A stretch of 64,000 nucleotides of DNA from Thermotogota bacterium (GCA_021161835.1 JAGGZV010000066.1:12108-76107); one strand, 5' to 3'. Shown: positions 28,542-46,144, numbered from the stretch's first letter. Notes: generated by a model not told the origin, from the sequence alone. Translations and numbers: made by a program.

Positions 28542-28562
28542 AACTTCGGGGAGGTGTGTAAT

Positions 28563-29822
28563 GTGAAAAAGCTACTCATTCTATTGCTGGTGGGCATTCT
28601 AGGGGTTTCCCTCTTTGGCAAAGTGGTGGTGGAGTTCTGGCATGCCATGGGTGGAGGGCATGGAGAAGCGCTCAAGGAAATCATAGCCTCATTCAACAGA
28701 GCACATCCGGATGTTGAAATCAAAGGTGTGTACGTGGGGAATTATGGAGTGCTGTCTCAGAAGCTTCTGGCAAGTGCTCAAAGTGGAACCTTACCGGTTC
28801 TGTCACAGGCATACTCGAACTGGACGGCGAAATTGATCGAAGGAGGTTATGTACAGGATCTGAATGTCTTCATAAATGATCCTGCTGTTGGGTTCACGAA
28901 GGAAGAATGGGAGGATATCTTCGAACCTTTCAGGAAGAACGTTACCTGGGGTGATAAAGTATACGCTCTTCCATTCAACAAGAGCACTTACGTGTTATTT
29001 GTGAACACCGATGCCCTCGATCTGGAGGGACTTGAGCCTCCGAAGGACATGACCGATCTTCTCGTTACCGCGTTGGCCCTTACTCAGGATCTGGATGGCG
29101 ATGGGGAAATAGATCAATACGGTTTTGGTATCAGACCTACCGTGGACACCTTCCAGATTTTCCTGCGACAGAATGGAGGTCGCATACTCACACTGAAGGA
29201 TGATGGAATGTACGAGATCACAGTTAACTCACCTGAAGCTGTGGAAGCTCTCCAGTTTATGGTTGACCTGGTTCACAAGTACAAAGTTGCTTACATGCAG
29301 GGAGGATATCTCAGCGGTCCATTCGGAGACGGGAAGGTAGCAATGTACATTGGAAGTACTGCCGGAAAACCTTATGTGGCCAGAGCCTGTAAAGGCAAAC
29401 ATGGATGGACGTGGGTGCAGCTTCCAAAATGGAAGACATTTGCTCCTCCATTCGCCGGTACAGATGTGATAATGTTCAACACTGCTACTGATGAGCAGAA
29501 GAAAGCTGCTTGGGAATTCATGAAATATCTGATGTCTCCTCAGATAACGGTTTACTGGGCAATAAAGACAGGTTACATGCCTGTGAGGAAATCTGCACTC
29601 GAAACCGATGCCTGGAAAGCTTTCGTATCGCAAGATGAGATGAATTCCGTCCCGGTGAGTCAAATTCCCTACGGCACGCTGGATCCACAGCTGGGAGTAT
29701 GGTACGAGATAAGGACGATCGTCGGACGAGCTGTTAGTGATGCCATGTATCTCAAAAAGAGTGTGAAGGAAGCACTGGATTGGGCCTATCAAGAGATAAG
29801 GAAAGTCCTAGAAGAAGGATGA
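28563..29822 (+). CDS. ABC-transporter extracellular solute-binding protein (family 1, sugar type), with no permease or ATPase genes adjacent
   Basis: The signal peptide is KKLLILLLVGILGVSLFG, followed by FWHAMGGGHGEAL and a typical SBP_bac_1 pattern. GTG 28563 lies 9 nt after GGGGAGG, and an alternative GTG is at 28554. Confidence 0.85.
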   Translation: MKKLLILLLVGILGVSLFGKVVVEFWHAMGGGHGEALKEIIASFNRAHPDVEIKGVYVGNYGVLSQKLLASAQSGTLPVLSQAYSNWTAKLIEGGYVQDLNVFINDPAVGFTKEEWEDIFEPFRKNVTWGDKVYALPFNKSTYVLFVNTDALDLEGLEPPKDMTDLLVTALALTQDLDGDGEIDQYGFGIRPTVDTFQIFLRQNGGRILTLKDDGMYEITVNSPEAVEALQFMVDLVHKYKVAYMQGGYLSGPFGDGKVAMYIGSTAGKPYVARACKGKHGWTWVQLPKWKTFAPPFAGTDVIMFNTATDEQKKAAWEFMKYLMSPQITVYWAIKTGYMPVRKSALETDAWKAFVSQDEMNSVPVSQIPYGTLDPQLGVWYEIRTIVGRAVSDAMYLKKSVKEALDWAYQEIRKVLEEG

Positions 29823-29887
29823 AAGATTTGCGAAAACATTGAGAAAATTATTGCGTCATCTTAATTGTTCGACATTCTCAGAAATGT

Positions 29888-29944
29888 AAGCCCTGCATCC
29901 TCAAAAAATCACGCAATATTAAGGATGCAGGGCTTTTATCTTTT
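29888..29944 (+). terminator. Hairpin terminator after the solute-binding protein gene
   Basis: A 14-bp perfect stem AAGCCCTGCATCCT / AGGATGCAGGGCTT spans 29888-29901 and 29922-29935. The 20-nt loop is unusually large, and TTATCTTTT follows. Confidence 0.55.
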
Positions 29945-30044
29945 ATATATGACGATTGTTTTGCACTATTGTGTATATAGTCGCACTTAGAGTTTTTCGC
30001 ACTATAACCGCAACAGACCCGTAATTTTTTTAATACTTATCAAG

Positions 30045-30050
30045 TATAAT
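30045..30050 (+). promoter_or_regulatory. Consensus -10 hexamer TATAAT upstream of the Cys-rich protein gene
   Basis: TATAAT at 30045-30050 lies 36 nt before ATG 30086 and is preceded by an A/T-rich tract. No good -35 is present. Confidence 0.3.
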
Positions 30051-30085
30051 CATTTAAAAATCCTATGTTCAAGGAGGGATATGGT

Positions 30086-30484
30086 ATGTTTAGAAGATTT
30101 TTAACAGTAGTGTTGTGTTTGGTCGTGATTTCTTCCATGGTTTCCGCTTTCACGGTTGCTTCCTTTATGGTGAACCTGAGTGAACCAGGAGATGCACTGA
30201 CATTTGGTAAAACGCCACCACGTCTTTTGAGGGAATGTGATGAATCCCTGACTGAACCGATCACCAGGTGTGTATGTGTCAAGAAAGAATGTAAAGGTGG
30301 TTACATGGATTATGTATGTCTCGATATTTGTAAACTGGGGTGTGAAATTGCCAAAAAGAAATATGGTAGTGTAGCGTATTGGGTATGCGTAGCAGGTTGT
30401 TATGCAGGCTGCTGGGTTCCGAAAAGGTGTACGTGCGTCGATTATGATTGTGTGACAATTTATCCGTGTAATTGGGGAAATTGA
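30086..30484 (+). CDS. Exported cysteine-rich protein (132 aa, 14 Cys in the last ~75 aa), family not recognised
   Basis: ATG 30086 lies 7 nt after AAGGAGGG. The signal-like N-terminus is MFRRFLTVVLCLVVISSMVSA. The C-terminal part contains YVCLDICKLGC and WVCVAGCYAGC, a duplicated VC-x3-C-x3-C motif. Confidence 0.6.
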   Translation: MFRRFLTVVLCLVVISSMVSAFTVASFMVNLSEPGDALTFGKTPPRLLRECDESLTEPITRCVCVKKECKGGYMDYVCLDICKLGCEIAKKKYGSVAYWVCVAGCYAGCWVPKRCTCVDYDCVTIYPCNWGN

Positions 30485-30549
30485 ATAATAATGAAATAAA
30501 TAATGCTAAAAACATATATTTCAATGACAAAACGGAGAGGGGGGTAAAC

Positions 30550-31491
30550 ATGAAGAAATTGCTTTTATTCACCATATTGGTAATTTCAATAATCTGTATT
30601 GCGGAAAATATGACCTTTATAGTTGGGAAGGACGAGGGAAGCATTGAGAGTATACAGGAGGCCATAGATCGTGCGAGCGATGGTGACACGATATACATAA
30701 AACCAGGTGTTTACCAGGAAAATATAGTGATAAAAAACAAAGCGGTGAAGATAATAGGGGAATCTCCAGATGTAAGGCTAGAGGTAGAAGGGTCCGAAGC
30801 AAGTCCTGTTGTATACATAGAAGATTCGGAAATTGAGCTCGCCAATTTAACGATCTTTGCCTCAGGTACAATAGCGGTCATGGCGATGAATTCAACGGTT
30901 GTTTTCAGGGATATGAATCTAATTTTGGGAGATGCCGTAGGTGTTTTCTTAATAGCAACTGGTACCATAGCCACGGAAAACCAAAATGTGGCTTGTTTCA
31001 AGAATGTTAACATGACAGGAGTGAAAACAGAAAAAAGAGTTGGAGGAAGCCGACGGATTGAAGTTCACGATAATCGTGGAATAATCTCCTTGATGGATTA
31101 CCAGCTTTATGTTTTCAATTCTCGATTTTCCTATTTACAAGTGGGTATTACCACATCGAGCAGAAAAACTCTTATAAGTGATTCGGAATTTCTTTACGAT
31201 GTTAATGCCTTGGTGCTAGTATCTGGGAACAACCTTGTGTTATCCAACAAGTTTCATAAAGCAATTGAAAGAGCTATTGTGTTGATGGGAAATTGCAGGG
31301 TAGAGTTAACCAACAATTCGTTTGCGGACAATACGGTGGATCTTTTCCTTTTAAACGAATCGTGTGATTGTTGTCCTTCTGCTAAGAAATTCACCGGGAG
31401 TATTGAGGGAAAGTTTAACATTTTCAAGCACACATTCATCGTTCAGCCAGAAGATACTGTTTTGCCTTCTCACTTCATACGTGGTGAGTAA
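30550..31491 (+). CDS. Exported right-handed parallel beta-helix repeat protein (pectin-lyase fold / NosD-like)
   Basis: ATG 30550 follows GGAGAGGGGGG. The N-terminal hydrophobic segment is KKLLLFTILVISIICIA. Next comes SIQEAIDRASDGDTIYIKPGVYQENIVI, typical of beta-helix proteins, then repetitive short beta-turn units. A C-terminal CDCC cluster is present. Confidence 0.65.
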   Translation: MKKLLLFTILVISIICIAENMTFIVGKDEGSIESIQEAIDRASDGDTIYIKPGVYQENIVIKNKAVKIIGESPDVRLEVEGSEASPVVYIEDSEIELANLTIFASGTIAVMAMNSTVVFRDMNLILGDAVGVFLIATGTIATENQNVACFKNVNMTGVKTEKRVGGSRRIEVHDNRGIISLMDYQLYVFNSRFSYLQVGITTSSRKTLISDSEFLYDVNALVLVSGNNLVLSNKFHKAIERAIVLMGNCRVELTNNSFADNTVDLFLLNESCDCCPSAKKFTGSIEGKFNIFKHTFIVQPEDTVLPSHFIRGE

Positions 31492-31644
31492 CCATTAAAA
31501 CTAATCCTTGCCATTTGACATCGGATCTGGCTGAGACCGAGCGTTTCAAAATTGGTGAAAGCAGTAAATTCAAACACAGGGAAAGCCAATAAATATGGAA
31601 TATCGATTTGAAATAGTGTTCCAAACTGCAAAGAGGGTGAAAAG

Positions 31645-32067
31645 GTGAAAAAGTGGTGTTTAGTGAGTATATTGGTGCTTTCACTGGTAGTGTTACCTGG
31701 TGGTGCTGCTAAGTACAAAACGTTGGCAGATATCCTTCAGGAGGCTTTAAATGTTGTAACAGAAATAACTCCTGTGGAAGCTGCTGCAAAAGTAGGGGAA
31801 AAAGATGTTGTGTTTTTAGATGTGAGGGAACCTACCGAAATAGAGAATGGCAGGATACCCGGTGCAGTGGTGTTGCCGCGAGGATTACTTGAGTTTAAGA
31901 TCGAAAAAATGTATCCCGATAGGGATGCGCAGTTGTTTGTGGTCTATTGCAAAGCAGGTGGTAGAGGCTTACTTGCAACTAAAACACTCATTGAAATGGG
32001 ATACAAAGCTGTAAACATAAAAGGTGGTATAACAGCGTGGAAAAAGGAAGGTTTACCTCTCGAATAA
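31645..32067 (+). CDS. Exported single-domain rhodanese (sulfurtransferase)
   Basis: GTG 31645 follows AGAGGGTGA. The signal-like N-terminus is KKWCLVSILVLSLVVLPGGAA. It has FLDVREPTEIENGRIPGA and the active-site loop YCKAGGRG. Confidence 0.85.
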   Translation: MKKWCLVSILVLSLVVLPGGAAKYKTLADILQEALNVVTEITPVEAAAKVGEKDVVFLDVREPTEIENGRIPGAVVLPRGLLEFKIEKMYPDRDAQLFVVYCKAGGRGLLATKTLIEMGYKAVNIKGGITAWKKEGLPLE

Positions 32068-32070
32068 TGC

Positions 32071-32103
32071 AAAACGGCCCTTCTCAGAAAGAGGGGCCGT
32101 TTT
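32071..32103. terminator. Bidirectional rho-independent terminator between the rhodanese gene (+) and the sigma-54 regulator gene (-)
   Basis: AAAACGGCCC at 32071-32080 pairs with GGGCCGTTTT at 32094-32103, and 3-4 more inner pairs are possible. The A-run and T-run flanks allow function in both directions. Confidence 0.7.
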
Positions 32104-32109
32104 ACTTGT

Positions 32110-33441
32110 CTAAGGATCTTCGTTTTCCTTTCTCCATTTTTTCAATTTTTCATGCAACGTGGTACGTGATATACCCAAAATTCTGGACGCTTCTTTTTTA
32201 TTACCTTTACATTTTTTCAGAACCATGTTGATGTATCGTTTTTCCATTTCCTCAAGTGTGGGAAGTTCTCTGTCGGTTTCATCGAGATGTTCTTCATTGA
32301 GATGGTTCATAACATGGGCTGAAGTTATCATACTGCCTTCTAATTTGACAACGAGAGAATACAGAAAATTTTTCAGTTCACGTACGTTTCCACGCCACGG
32401 GAGATTTTTCAGAAGTTCCACGGCATCGTCGGATATTTCCACCCCATGCAAGCCGAACTCTTCTTTCGCACGTTCCACGAAGTAGTAGGCCAGATCTTCG
32501 ATATCTTCAGGACGAGCCCTCAGGGAAGGAATTCTTATTTCCATAACTTTCAATCTGTAAAAAAGATCTTCGCGAAATCTACCTTCTTCCACCATCTCTT
32601 CCAGGTTTCTGTTGGTGGCGCATATGATGCGTACATCGACTTTTATCGTTTGAGTACTACCTATCTTTTCAAGTTCTGAAGTTTCAAGGAACCTGAGCAG
32701 TTTTGCCTGTACGCCTGGTGGAAGTTCTGCGATCTCATCGAGGAATACTGTACCACCGTCCGCTATCTCAAGTTTTCCCGGTTTTGGAGTATCTGCTCCT
32801 GTGAATGCCCCCTTTTCGTATCCGAAGAGTTCGCTTTCGAAGAGAGTATCGGGTATGGCACCACAGTTGACGACCACAAAAGGTTTGCGGCCGCTGACTT
32901 CGTGTATGGCTCGTGCCACCAGTTCTTTACCCGTACCGCTTTCGCCCGTTATCAAAACATTTATTTTTTTGGGTCCAACCTTCATTATGGTTTCCTTCAA
33001 CTTCTGCATGTGAACCGATCTGCCAATAAGTTGGTTGAGAACACTCCGAGATTTCATGAAATCTGCAATTTTTTTATTGAGTTCACGTTTTTCCAGGACC
33101 CTTTCTACTTCCGTTATCAATTGATCTTTCTCGACGGGTTTGGTGAAGAAGTTGTACGCACCCTGTTTTATAGCCTTCACCGCGTCTTGAACATCACCGT
33201 GTGCCGTGAGTATCAAAACATCTGCTCCCCGGCTCCTGAATTCAGGTACCAGACTAAGACCATTACAATCTGGAAGTTTCAAATCCAGTATAACCAGATC
33301 GAAGAACGATTCGATTTTTTCAAGAGCAGTTCTACAATCGGCAACTACTTCTACCTCGAGATTTCTGGATGTCAGGAGTTCTTTGAGCAATTTGGCGAAG
33401 GTTGCATTATCTTCCACCACCAGTATTCTTCCTGTCACCAC
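32110..33441 (-). CDS. Sigma-54-dependent response regulator (NtrC family: REC + AAA+ + Fis-type HTH)
   Basis: The REC domain shows ILVVEDN...DLKLPD. The AAA+ domain shows Walker A GESGTGKE, the sigma-54 contact loop EKGAFTGA, and FLDEI and FREDLFYRL. The C-terminal HTH is ASRILGISRTTLHEKLKK. A GTG start follows GGAGGTG. Confidence 0.92.
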   Translation of the reverse strand: MVTGRILVVEDNATFAKLLKELLTSRNLEVEVVADCRTALEKIESFFDLVILDLKLPDCNGLSLVPEFRSRGADVLILTAHGDVQDAVKAIKQGAYNFFTKPVEKDQLITEVERVLEKRELNKKIADFMKSRSVLNQLIGRSVHMQKLKETIMKVGPKKINVLITGESGTGKELVARAIHEVSGRKPFVVVNCGAIPDTLFESELFGYEKGAFTGADTPKPGKLEIADGGTVFLDEIAELPPGVQAKLLRFLETSELEKIGSTQTIKVDVRIICATNRNLEEMVEEGRFREDLFYRLKVMEIRIPSLRARPEDIEDLAYYFVERAKEEFGLHGVEISDDAVELLKNLPWRGNVRELKNFLYSLVVKLEGSMITSAHVMNHLNEEHLDETDRELPTLEEMEKRYINMVLKKCKGNKKEASRILGISRTTLHEKLKKWRKENEDP

Positions 33442-34705
33442 CGCACCTCCTGATCTCCAGAGAGATTATCGTACCTTTGTTGGGTTTAGAACGTAACCTG
33501 AGCCTGGCCCCACAGGTATTCATGAATCTTTCTATCAGAACCGTGCCAAGTCCCGTACCATCGGGTTTGGTACTGAAAAAAGGTTCGCGCCAGCGCTTTT
33601 GAACTTCCTCGTCCATTCCTCTACCGTCATCGCATATCAGCAATCTGACGTGTTTTTTTCCTTTCCTGACCACTACTCTTACCTTTCCTCCGCTGGTACA
33701 TGCATCCACAGCATTCTTCACCATATCTTTTATGGCTTCCGTGAAGAGCGAGGGTGAAATGTATCCCCTGATGTCGTTATCTTCTATGTCCAGGTGTAAC
33801 TTCACTCCTCTGTTTTCAGCATAATGACCGATTTCCTCCATAACTTTTTCAAGATATTGAAGAATTTTGGAACATCTCGGTGTACCTTCTATCTTGTATA
33901 TGGTGAACATACTGTTGAGAGTCCGTTCGATCTTACGAAGTTCCGATAGTATGGTCTTCAGATGAGGCTCATCCGGGTACTCCTCCTCCAACAATTGCGC
34001 GGACAGCTTCGCATTCGCTATAGGGGTTTTCAAACTGTGTGCAAGTCCTGAAAGCATGCTCGATAGAGCTGTCAAACGTTGCGTAATCTCCAGCTTCCTC
34101 CTCAATTCTGTCAACTCTGTTATGTCCGTTAATGTGTGAAAAACGTAAGTACCCATTTTTCTGGTGGTTATAAGCAACCAGTGCCCCGAACCGGAGAAAA
34201 CTATTCTTTTTCCTTCATTGGTACGTGGGAAGGACAGATCCAGCACATTTTCCAATCTGAAAAAGTGTTTACCTATCCACTCTTTGGGATCCACCTGCAG
34301 AAGGTCCTTGCAACGCGAGCTCACATAGTTCACCCGACCATCATCGCCAACGGTTATTATGCACGCATCGATTTCATCCAGAAACCTCTGAAACCTTCTC
34401 GCCAGTTCCCTGAATGCCAGAGACTCCCGGGAAAAGCGCATGATTATCGAATTCACAGCGTTTATCAAACTGAATATCTGCGAATCTCCGGACATATTGA
34501 GTGGCGTGAAACCATGTGGTCGGTTCAATCTGTGAATGGTGTCGTTTATGGGTTTCACAAACCTGTACCGAACGAAAAGTGCGGTAAAGATTCCGCCTAC
34601 CAGGGCTCCCAGCAACACGCCAAGGAAACCGCCGTGGATAAGGTAAAGAATGATGGGCATCGAAGAGGCAACGATGAACGTCAGTAGCAGAGTATTACGC
34701 CTCAT
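33407..34705 (-). CDS. Sensor histidine kinase (two N-terminal TM helices with almost no external loop, PAS-like region, HisKA, HATPase)
   Basis: The H-box is LSGLAHSLKTPIAN and the N-box is VKNAVDA. The G-boxes are DDGRGM and GTGLGT. The 3' end overlaps the regulator start by about 35 nt. Confidence 0.88.
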   Translation of the reverse strand: MRRNTLLLTFIVASSMPIILYLIHGGFLGVLLGALVGGIFTALFVRYRFVKPINDTIHRLNRPHGFTPLNMSGDSQIFSLINAVNSIIMRFSRESLAFRELARRFQRFLDEIDACIITVGDDGRVNYVSSRCKDLLQVDPKEWIGKHFFRLENVLDLSFPRTNEGKRIVFSGSGHWLLITTRKMGTYVFHTLTDITELTELRRKLEITQRLTALSSMLSGLAHSLKTPIANAKLSAQLLEEEYPDEPHLKTILSELRKIERTLNSMFTIYKIEGTPRCSKILQYLEKVMEEIGHYAENRGVKLHLDIEDNDIRGYISPSLFTEAIKDMVKNAVDACTSGGKVRVVVRKGKKHVRLLICDDGRGMDEEVQKRWREPFFSTKPDGTGLGTVLIERFMNTCGARLRLRSKPNKGTIISLEIRRCGGDRKNTGGGR

Positions 34706-46068: not shown

Positions 46069-46144
46069 GGGGTCGTGGCGCAGCTGGGAGCGCGCTACCA
46101 TGGCACGGTAGAGGTCGTGGGTTCGAATCCCATCGACTCCACCA
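46069..46144 (+). tRNA. tRNA-Ala (anticodon GGC), CCA encoded
   Basis: I folded the cloverleaf by hand. The acceptor stem GGGGTCG/CGACTCC has the G3:U70 alanine identity pair. The D-stem is GCGC/GCGC. The anticodon stem CTACC/GGTAG carries the loop A-T-GGC-A-C. The T-arm is GTGGG-TTCGAAT-CCCAT. The discriminator is A, followed by CCA. Total length is 76 nt. Confidence 0.95.

Follow-up and report, generated by a model that had tools for sequence, protein, structure and literature searches.

An exported right-handed beta-helix protein encoded beside a small exported partner, which is often a lipoprotein, is known from the NosD/NosL system of CuZ assembly in nitrous oxide (N2O) reductase, where NosL is a lipoprotein copper (Cu) chaperone encoded in nos clusters (PMC8457098). 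A comparable gene arrangement is described here in a 64 kb stretch of DNA from a Thermotogota bacterium (GCA_021161835.1 JAGGZV010000066.1:12108-76107), which as a whole is called the window; the region under study, called the block, lies at positions 29823-32103 of it. The block carries the following three genes, the first two of which form a conserved two-gene cassette that was overlooked in the initial annotation, where all three had been taken as one system.

30086-30484, plus strand, gene of a Cys-rich protein of 132 residues, ATG start; signal peptide, variable linker and a domain of about 80 residues with 14 Cys
30550-31491, plus strand, gene of a NosD-like right-handed beta-helix protein of 313 residues, ATG start
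31645-32067, plus strand, gene of an exported single-domain rhodanese of 140 residues, GTG start

The best curated matches of the beta-helix proteins of this cassette are to NosD (PF05048 and TIGR04247), yet they fall far under the family cut-offs. Unlike NosD, these proteins have about 300 residues and no conserved Met, His or Cys, and their small partner is a Cys-rich domain unrelated to NosL. No nosZ, nosF, nosY or nosL gene was found beside the window cassette or in any related locus.

Pectin methylesterase and its helical-hairpin, disulfide-bonded inhibitor (PMEI) are another example of a beta-helix protein with a small disulfide-stabilised helical partner. The likeness is an analogy in that both pairs combine a beta-helix with a small helical protein, whereas the conserved pectinesterase catalytic residues are missing here.

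For the small partner, the nearest described proteins are the alpha-hairpinins, which include antimicrobial peptides and trypsin inhibitors and carry the motif C1X3C2-Xn-C3X3C4 on two antiparallel helices joined by C1-C4 and C2-C3 disulfides (PMC7191063). The bacterial domain has this motif on two predicted antiparallel helices and, like nigellin-1.1, the vicilin-buried peptides and VhTI, would form an antiparallel helix-loop-helix with Cx3C on both helices. However, it has three rungs (Cx3Cx3C twice) in place of two, sits between two Cys-bearing beta-hairpins with 12 core Cys, is exported by Sec or fused to a lipoprotein, and is paired by its gene with a beta-helix protein in nine of ten lineages. 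The likeness is one of motif and fold (E = 1.2e-3), not a demonstrated homology.

Two further systems touch the locus. ArsEFG detoxify aromatic arsenicals (Chen, Zhang and Rosen 2019, in the passage of PMC9144182 that cites it), and a cluster of the ArsR-ArsP-ArsE-ArsF-ArsG type immediately precedes the cassette, in its lipoprotein form, in three lineages. The cassette is not a known ars gene, is apparently a separate transcription unit, and in Thermotogota occurs without ars genes nearby. The third gene of the block resembles the periplasmic single-domain rhodaneses PspE (E. coli) and Sud (Wolinella) in its signal peptide, single rhodanese domain and CxxGxR loop; unlike them, its closest solved relative is the uncharacterised rhodanese-like 6mxv.

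Conservation of the gene pair

In nine of ten lineages the next gene after the Cys-rich gene, 8-68 nt further along the same strand, is a homologous beta-helix gene, as confirmed on all loci with hidden Markov models (HMMs). The pair is present in the window group (the window and its strain-level relatives L001, L002 and L027) and in the lineages of P0005 (L007), P0006 (L008-10, L028), P0007 (L011-13, L021), P0013 (L016, L017), P0015 (L018, L019, L030), P0011 (L025, L026), P0020 (L024) and P0022 (L023). The downstream partners are exported proteins of 265-316 residues with 20-61% identity to the beta-helix protein of the window. In a mirror-tree comparison the pairwise identities of both proteins correlate (r = 0.68; Mantel 3/5000), partly due to two close pairs.

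The genes around the pair vary between Thermotogota and are unrelated to each other, being a GntR/ATP-binding cassette (ABC) operon with Era, PAP2 with a major facilitator superfamily (MFS) transporter, a methyltransferase with EamA, or an ABC exporter. In the last case, a lineage of Thermotogaceae metagenome-assembled genomes (MAGs; L008:2983-4943, L009:1458-3418), the next genes after the pair are a 79-residue open reading frame (ORF), which matches no family, and a fused ABC_membrane/ABC_tran exporter; L009 also has transposase fragments just downstream.

Compared with L027, the ratio of non-synonymous to synonymous substitution (dN/dS) was 0.04 for the upstream solute-binding-protein (SBP) gene, 0.14 for the beta-helix gene, 0.75 for the rhodanese gene and 0.74 for the Cys-rich gene, all from small numbers of changes. 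In the Cys-rich gene, eight of the 11 changes affect the signal peptide or the linker ahead of the domain, and no Cys is altered.

The initial annotation had noted signal-like N-terminal segments on all three ORFs, and this was borne out by heuristic calls (not SignalP). Each N-terminus has a +2 n-region, a 12-residue hydrophobic core with a mean Kyte-Doolittle value of 3.0-3.2, and small residues at candidate cleavage sites. Across the family of the Cys-rich protein, the short forms have signal peptides, and a lipobox was found in each of the six long forms examined.

A rare family of Cys-rich proteins

The Cys-rich protein gave no match in Pfam, NCBIfam, PADLOC or PHROG, none of the 18 family members matched Pfam, and no plasmid or phage match was found for the domain. 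A word-indexed search returned a single strain variant of 93% identity, while an exhaustive phmmer search of 1.84 billion representatives returned 17 family proteins, all of which have ECDESxTEP...CWVP...TIYPC. The view that the first gene belongs to no recognised family therefore holds, and the protein defines a rare undescribed family whose members all carry the annotation 'hypothetical protein' alone.

The consensus of the C-terminal domain of about 80 residues is ECDESxTEPxTxCxC ... D..C...C...C ... C...C...CWVP..C....C.TIYPC. It is conserved at 30-60% identity across phyla, with GC contents of 26-62%, and occurs in two architectures: as short secreted proteins of 116-143 residues, and as the C-terminus of lipobox proteins of about 255-280 residues. 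Short forms are found in Thermosipho ferrireducens, T. africanus, T. melanesiensis, T. globiformans and Thermotogaceae MAGs, and long forms on metagenomic contigs of about 61% GC.

Two side observations concern the wider family. The N-terminal lipoprotein part of the long forms P0010, P0011, P0014-16, P0019 and P0020 is a domain of about 170 residues with a YPYVMFLVD...RVTPxLSER motif (L018:6001-6500, L025:6001-6500); it has no Pfam, NCBIfam or PDB-sequence match and is a second undescribed domain. In the P0009 type (L022:6715-7872, L031:4715-5872), a 385-residue secreted protein with a CIQC (CxxC) motif and no family match is encoded upstream of the Cys-rich gene.

Paired cysteines and predicted fold

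In an alignment of 18 sequences the domain has 12 core Cys columns, and the Cys columns behave as pairs. Columns 16 and 78 agree in 18/18 sequences, with Cys at both positions in 11 and at neither in seven; columns 43 and 51 were acquired jointly in two sequences, and in P0012 columns 32 and 63 have both lost their Cys. With exactly two additional Cys, C69 and C115, the window protein reaches 14. This suggests six core disulfides or dithiol pairs, and seven in the window copy.

The AlphaFold2 (AF2) model from the 18-sequence alignment is confident over the domain, with per-block means of the predicted local distance difference test (pLDDT) of 89-98 for residues 51-130 and 94-98 for residues 61-120. 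A beta-hairpin (59-70), two helices (76-93 and 95-108) and a second beta-hairpin (114-127) are predicted. C78, C82 and C86 would lie on the first helix and C101 and C105 on the second, with C109 just past its end, so that the helical hairpin has Cx3Cx3C twice (C78x3C82x3C86 and C101x3C105x3C109). The outer rung of this antiparallel hairpin, C78-C109, corresponds to columns 32 and 63, the pair lost in P0012; this joint loss lends indirect support to the outer-outer and inner-inner pairing that the domain would share with alpha-hairpinins. The Cys pairs may be disulfide staples of the alpha-hairpinin type. Under this model they would be 62-122, 78-109, 82-105, 86-101 and 69-115, and C51, C64, C117 and C128 would make up two more.

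Searches with the model and the family profile bear on the same likeness. Foldseek of the model against the PDB gave nothing at E <= 1e-3, and a vicilin-buried alpha-hairpinin peptide stood at rank 20 among the non-significant matches (E 7.8, template modelling (TM) score to target 0.52). The family profile had one match in the PDB, the alpha-hairpinin nigellin-1.1 (E = 1.2e-3 over 33 residues), consisting mostly of the Cys pattern. Against a place among the metallothioneins or Cys-lined metal-storage proteins, whose Cys-rich chains have no defined apo fold and form metal-thiolate clusters, would speak the confident predicted fold of the domain, its conserved W, Y and I, and the pairwise variation of its Cys.

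The beta-helix protein

A GenBank entry of a 'Thermotogae bacterium' MAG (locus tag J7L52_06475) matches the beta-helix protein at 100% identity. The initial annotation had compared the protein with beta-helix proteins of the NosD type, and of this the superfamily assignment stands (PF13229 at 26.0 bits against a cut-off of 25.9, right-handed beta-helix), while the NosD thresholds were not reached. TIGR04247 scored 40.6 bits against 300 and covered the N-terminal 70 positions only, PF05048 scored 17.2 against 23.6, and no NosD chain was among the PDB profile matches. NosD orthology was rejected on these scores and on the missing nos gene context.

The 11 beta-helix partners behave in a similar way. 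PF13229 was matched by six (best 7e-13), Pfam NosD by eight (best 1e-8) and TIGR04247 by ten, far under its cut-off. Their invariant columns are Gly, Ser and Phe only, and no invariant His, Cys, Met or acidic catalytic residue was found in the family. Because no invariant residue of a catalytic type is present, the sequences make it more likely that these are scaffold or binding proteins than enzymes. An AF2 model of the beta-helix protein from a three-sequence alignment had a mean pLDDT of 48, with successive short strands that are confident for residues ~20-120 only. A match to a PHROG 'neck protein' covers only the generic beta-helix N-terminal cap, and a scan of the genome collection with the beta-helix protein found nothing.

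Some features of individual partners were also recorded. The Thermotogota-type partners have CxxCP near the C-terminus (A7 columns ~305-312; SCDCCPS, SCDSCPF, ICNSCPH, DCSSCPK), which is missing from L008/L028 and from the high-GC partners and could be a lineage-specific redox or disulfide site. In the homologue P0004 (L006:211-1184), an apparent frameshift has left two ORFs that overlap (211-534 and 531-1184). At the contig end L001:1940-1984 the translation ...CLLYTSPSPRD* gives the beta-helix protein a false C-terminus, which looks like Nextera adapter read-through.

The rhodanese gene

That the third gene encodes a rhodanese was confirmed by PF00581 (61.3 bits against a gathering threshold of 22.2) and by an intact active-site loop CKAGGR (VVYCKAGGRG), which has the form CxxGx[R/T] when aligned to solved rhodaneses. 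Its PDB relatives are 6mxv (3.6e-30), Sud (1qxn, 4.4e-10), PspE (2jtq, 2.7e-6), 1yt8 and 2hhg. The NCBIfam PspE models gave 36.4 and 35.4 bits against cut-offs of 102 and 126, and every equivalog cut-off was missed; on its sequence, the gene is a generic exported rhodanese and not a PspE/Sud equivalog.

No rhodanese gene was found beside the pair in the other nine lineages. In L027 (L027:2113-2538), which has the same synteny and 98% DNA identity across the region, codon 79 has changed from CGA to TGA ahead of the catalytic Cys, and G128D alters the conserved GG motif. The in-frame stop could reflect gene decay or an assembly error. Because the rhodanese does not accompany the pair elsewhere and has a nonsense mutation in L027, it lies outside the conserved unit; the three-gene system proposed at first was rejected, and the picture is of a functional-looking but dispensable, lineage-specific passenger. 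PspE, when combined with DsbC, can take over part of the role of DsbA/DsbB in forming disulfides (Chng et al. 2012, as given in a passage of PMC5403849), and by analogy the rhodanese could locally serve a PspE/DsbC-like thiol oxidation, which is speculation.

An ars-like context of the long forms

In three long-form lineages (L018/19, L025/26 and L033), the pair lies downstream of a cluster of an ArsR/SmtB metalloregulator, a PF03773 permease (SO_0444/SaoE-like efflux), an ArsE-family thioredoxin, an ArsF-family protein and an ArsG-family transporter, sometimes with an AhpD-like CxxC gene. The ArsE, ArsF and ArsG matches are over the NCBIfam cut-offs. This adjoining cluster ties the long forms to a neighbourhood of soft-metal(loid) and thiol-redox functions. 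However, the pair has its own upstream intergenic region, a gene on the opposite strand stands between pair and cluster in L025/26, and near the short Thermotogota forms, the window included, no ars or metal genes were found.

Explanations for the cassette

The explanation towards which we lean is that the functional unit is the two-gene cassette, which would provide an exported cystine-stapled mini-domain in complex with a non-catalytic beta-helix scaffold. The product of the first gene would be exported by Sec, its C-terminal ~80 residues forming a compact domain with 12 core Cys in six spatial pairs (14 and seven in the window), and the product of the second would be an exported right-handed beta-helix of ~300 residues with a scaffold or binding role. 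The two genes would be co-transcribed and both products exported, and beneath the toga or outer membrane they may work as a complex in which the mini-domain docks on the beta-helix. The lipoproteins of other phyla would carry this domain at their C-terminus and hold it at the membrane. The rhodanese would be a local addition that could at most help thiol oxidation or persulfide chemistry.

Several points weigh against this explanation. The P0009-type lineage (L014/15/22/31/32) has no beta-helix neighbour, no Cys-rich gene was found in the ~250-550 bp available upstream of P0003 and P0004, the closest beta-helix homologues (58-61% identity), and the two close pairs contribute to the mirror-tree correlation. 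The scaffold role is argued solely from the missing conserved catalytic residues, because the model is poor (pLDDT 48). Paired variation would also be expected of Cys that bind metal as dithiols. All hosts being strict anaerobes, and many sulfidogenic, they belong to organisms that to our knowledge usually lack DsbA/DsbB and avoid structural disulfides, so reduced metal-binding thiols would be favoured; no gene of a Dsb-type oxidase turned up around the short forms.

The main rival, which is possible although we regard it as unlikely, refines the idea in the initial annotation of an extracytoplasmic sulfur, thiol or metal module. In this rival the Cys pairs would stay reduced and serve to chelate a thiophilic species, for instance As(III), a trivalent organoarsenical, Cu(I), Cd or polysulfide, so that the cassette would handle soft metal(loid)s or sulfane sulfur outside the cytoplasm; the beta-helix would be a docking or transfer partner, as NosD is with NosL, and the rhodanese would supply or remove persulfide sulfur. 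The position downstream of the ars-like cluster in three long-form lineages fits this idea, ArsEFG acting in organoarsenical detoxification according to the same passage of PMC9144182. The long forms are lipoproteins, as NosL is, NosD is the best curated match of the beta-helix partners, and an exported rhodanese with an intact active site adjoins the pair in the window. Structural disulfides are, as is generally known, uncommon in anaerobic hosts. However, the short forms lack ars or metal genes nearby and the pair is set apart from the cluster by its own intergenic region, in L025/26 also by the intervening gene. No Cys, His or Met is invariant in the beta-helix family, which stays under the NosD thresholds and has no NosFY neighbours, the hydrophobically packed predicted fold of the domain with its conserved W, Y and I is unlike metallothionein-type binders, and the rhodanese is dispensable. 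Of the module first proposed, the thiol or metal theme gains independent support from the paired Cys and from the ars-like neighbours of the lipoprotein forms, whereas the trio as a co-conserved unit is not supported.

A more specific and slightly less probable proposal is that the cassette is an unrecognised two-protein system in which a six-rung Cys 'ladder' on a NosD-like beta-helix reversibly captures thiophilic metal(loid)s or sulfane sulfur. Free or tethered as a lipoprotein, the ladder domain could capture, for example, trivalent arsenicals exported by neighbouring ArsP/ArsG-type permeases, and in this Thermotogota genome the exported rhodanese could service its thiols.

It is improbable, in our judgement, that the first gene encodes a secreted hyperstable effector, a disulfide-knotted antimicrobial or enzyme-inhibitor mini-protein that would be the bacterial analogue of plant alpha-hairpinins. 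The domain may be released by cleavage at the basic residue preceding the first Cys, with the beta-helix as target, immunity or processing partner, comparable to pectin methylesterase and its helical-hairpin inhibitor. The Cx3C helical hairpin resembles the alpha-hairpinins, a class with antimicrobial peptides and trypsin inhibitors among its members, the linker between signal peptide and domain is variable, and R or K stands 1-3 residues ahead of the first Cys in most members. The 79-residue ORF and ABC exporter that follow the pair in one lineage, the patchy, island-like distribution with atypical composition, and weak N-terminal pectinesterase matches of the beta-helix (E about 1e-4) also point this way. 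Against a diffusible toxin speak the lipoprotein-tethered long forms, and the domain is not cationic overall, its ECDES/TEP motif being acidic. The exporter occurs in one lineage only, the three proteins have no PADLOC match and the Cys-rich domain no plasmid or phage match, and the pectinesterase matches are limited to the generic N-terminal cap.

That there is no functional unit, but a chance grouping of three unrelated genes for small exported proteins in a low-GC patch or a Cys-rich ORF that is spurious or a precursor of the ribosomally synthesised and post-translationally modified peptide (RiPP) type, is very improbable: the trio itself is not conserved, every member is annotated merely as a hypothetical protein and the Cys-rich gene has an overall dN/dS of 0.74 against L027, but this explanation is largely refuted by a Cys domain that keeps its Cys and motifs at 30-60% identity across phyla of 26-62% GC, by the beta-helix adjacency in nine of ten lineages, by the concentration of changes against L027 in signal peptide and linker, and by the lack of a radical-SAM or other RiPP maturase in any locus. 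A RiPP or bacteriocin precursor of the SCIFF/ranthipeptide-like kind was likewise rejected, as there is no maturase in the loci, the N-termini are Sec or lipoprotein signals, and an ABC exporter is found in one lineage.

Boundaries and signals of the block

The edges of the block and its signals are formed by the following features.

28554-29822, gene of the solute-binding protein (SBP), upstream neighbour of the block
29888-29935, plus strand, terminator-like hairpin at the left edge of the block, closing the upstream SBP gene
30045-30050, plus strand, candidate -10 box TATAAT of the cassette, read from the sequence
32071-32103, bidirectional terminator-like hairpin, common to the rhodanese gene (plus) and the convergent regulator gene (minus)
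32110-33441, minus strand, gene of a sigma-54 response regulator, convergent

The initial annotation had placed the block between two hairpins, a 14-bp stem on the left and a bidirectional terminator on the right, and both were recovered by folding. The left hairpin has 17-nt arms with 94% complementarity, 14 perfect pairs and a 20-nt loop (dG -25.3 kcal/mol, z -5.75; none of 200 shuffles equalled its folding) and is followed by the U-rich tail UUUUAUCUUUUAU; its stem is preserved in L001/L002 through a change of A-U to G-U. The right hairpin has 14-nt arms with 93% complementarity and folds strongly on both strands (dG -22.9 kcal/mol, z -5.2 on plus; -24.3 kcal/mol, z -6.7 on minus), and since it is flanked by an A-run and a T-run it is able to act in both directions. 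A second conceivable pairing (I4), between the terminator loop and a segment upstream, was rejected and is taken as chance because it is not conserved in L001/L002.

The ribosome-binding sites (RBSs) reported for all three ORFs can be read as AAGGAGGG before ATG 30086, GGAGAGGGGGG before ATG 30550 and AGAGGGTG before GTG 31645. The Cys-rich gene has an alternative ATG at 30065, which would give 139 residues, and the beta-helix gene most likely starts at 30550 rather than at TTG 30472. The TATAAT box proposed as the block's own is present at 30045-30050 and unchanged in the three strain-level relatives, but a two-hexamer promoter scan did not list it because no acceptable -35 precedes it; it may be the promoter of the cassette and is kept as a candidate. 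Upstream of it, T(T/C)GCACT occurs three times (at ~29961, 29982 and 29998, within 29954-30005), partly inside a 16-nt direct repeat (GATTGTTTTGCACTAT / GAGTTTTTCGCACTAT, 36 nt apart). These copies are only partially conserved in L001/L002 and could be an operator.

The earlier statement that the only sizeable gaps at 28-40 kb flank the block was not upheld, as the largest gaps are one of about 242-263 bp ahead of the block and one of 153 bp within it, separating the beta-helix gene from the rhodanese gene, while the downstream gap is merely 42 bp. The structure of the 153-nt internal gap is not unusual (z -1.16), and a search of the block's intergenic regions for riboswitches and known RNAs gave sub-threshold chance matches only.

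The block is flanked by genes for PGI, CoaE and the SBP on one side, and for the NtrC-type regulator, a histidine kinase, S-adenosylmethionine (SAM) hydroxide adenosyltransferase, UDG and DisA on the other. The SBP gene (SBP_bac_8 / SBP_bac_1; 28554-29935 with its own strong terminator) is an orphan, since no ABC permease or ATPase genes follow it. The sigma-54-dependent NtrC-type regulator and histidine kinase genes that adjoin the block overlap by 35 nt (32110-34705, minus strand). Control of the cassette by this two-component system was rejected, the regulator gene being convergent with the cassette; no TGGCAC-N5-TTGC-like (-24/-12) site was found upstream of the cassette, and the 28 such sites across the window against 26 expected are at chance level.

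Composition and origin

The block was suspected to be richer in AT than its neighbours, and sliding G+C, G+C content at third codon positions (GC3) and codon usage are all atypical. Its GC content is 39.5% against 45.9% for the window, which is the lowest of any 2.3-kb stretch of the window and rank 3 of 1235 same-size windows, the lower ones overlapping the block. GC3 is 0.368 for the Cys-rich gene, 0.401 for the beta-helix gene and 0.355 for the rhodanese gene, all below the minimum of 0.403 among 55 background ORFs (0.490 +/- 0.035), and the beta-helix gene has a codon-usage z of -3.3, where the background minimum is -2.0.

The composition of the pair is often unlike that of its host locus, with a context that differs genome by genome, and its nearest relatives are in the low-GC Thermosipho ferrireducens (46-47% identity). 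Because of the low GC3 and odd codon usage, the varying contexts and these relatives, it is plausible that the block arrived laterally from a lower-GC Thermotogota lineage. The horizontal acquisition suggested earlier is thus favoured by the atypical composition, but not by an integrase, tRNA target, direct repeats or mobile-element links: no mobility genes or flanking repeats mark the block, and the sole tRNA of the window is at 46069. The block is in the same place in L001, L002 and L027. No viral, phage or plasmid relatives were found, and a phage, plasmid or defence-system link was rejected, with no PADLOC match for any of the three proteins.

Significance

To summarise, the best explanation of the data is a newly defined family and gene pair, in which a cystine- or dithiol-paired mini-domain is combined with a NosD-like beta-helix scaffold. 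The cassette is a defined, testable gene pair in cultured Thermosipho species and in uncultured high-GC anaerobes, and it gives a first functional context to a small NosD-like beta-helix subgroup outside nos clusters. The Cys-rich domain, whose fold is predicted with confidence and which has no solved structural relative, is a candidate for a new domain family. If its 12-14 Cys are oxidised, the question would be how strict anaerobes, which generally have no Dsb system, fold an exported protein with six disulfides. If they are reduced, the domain would be a new periplasmic thiol-based binder linked to ars-type clusters, and should the ladder proposal be true, it would add a new periplasmic buffering or hand-off step to soft-metal(loid) resistance.

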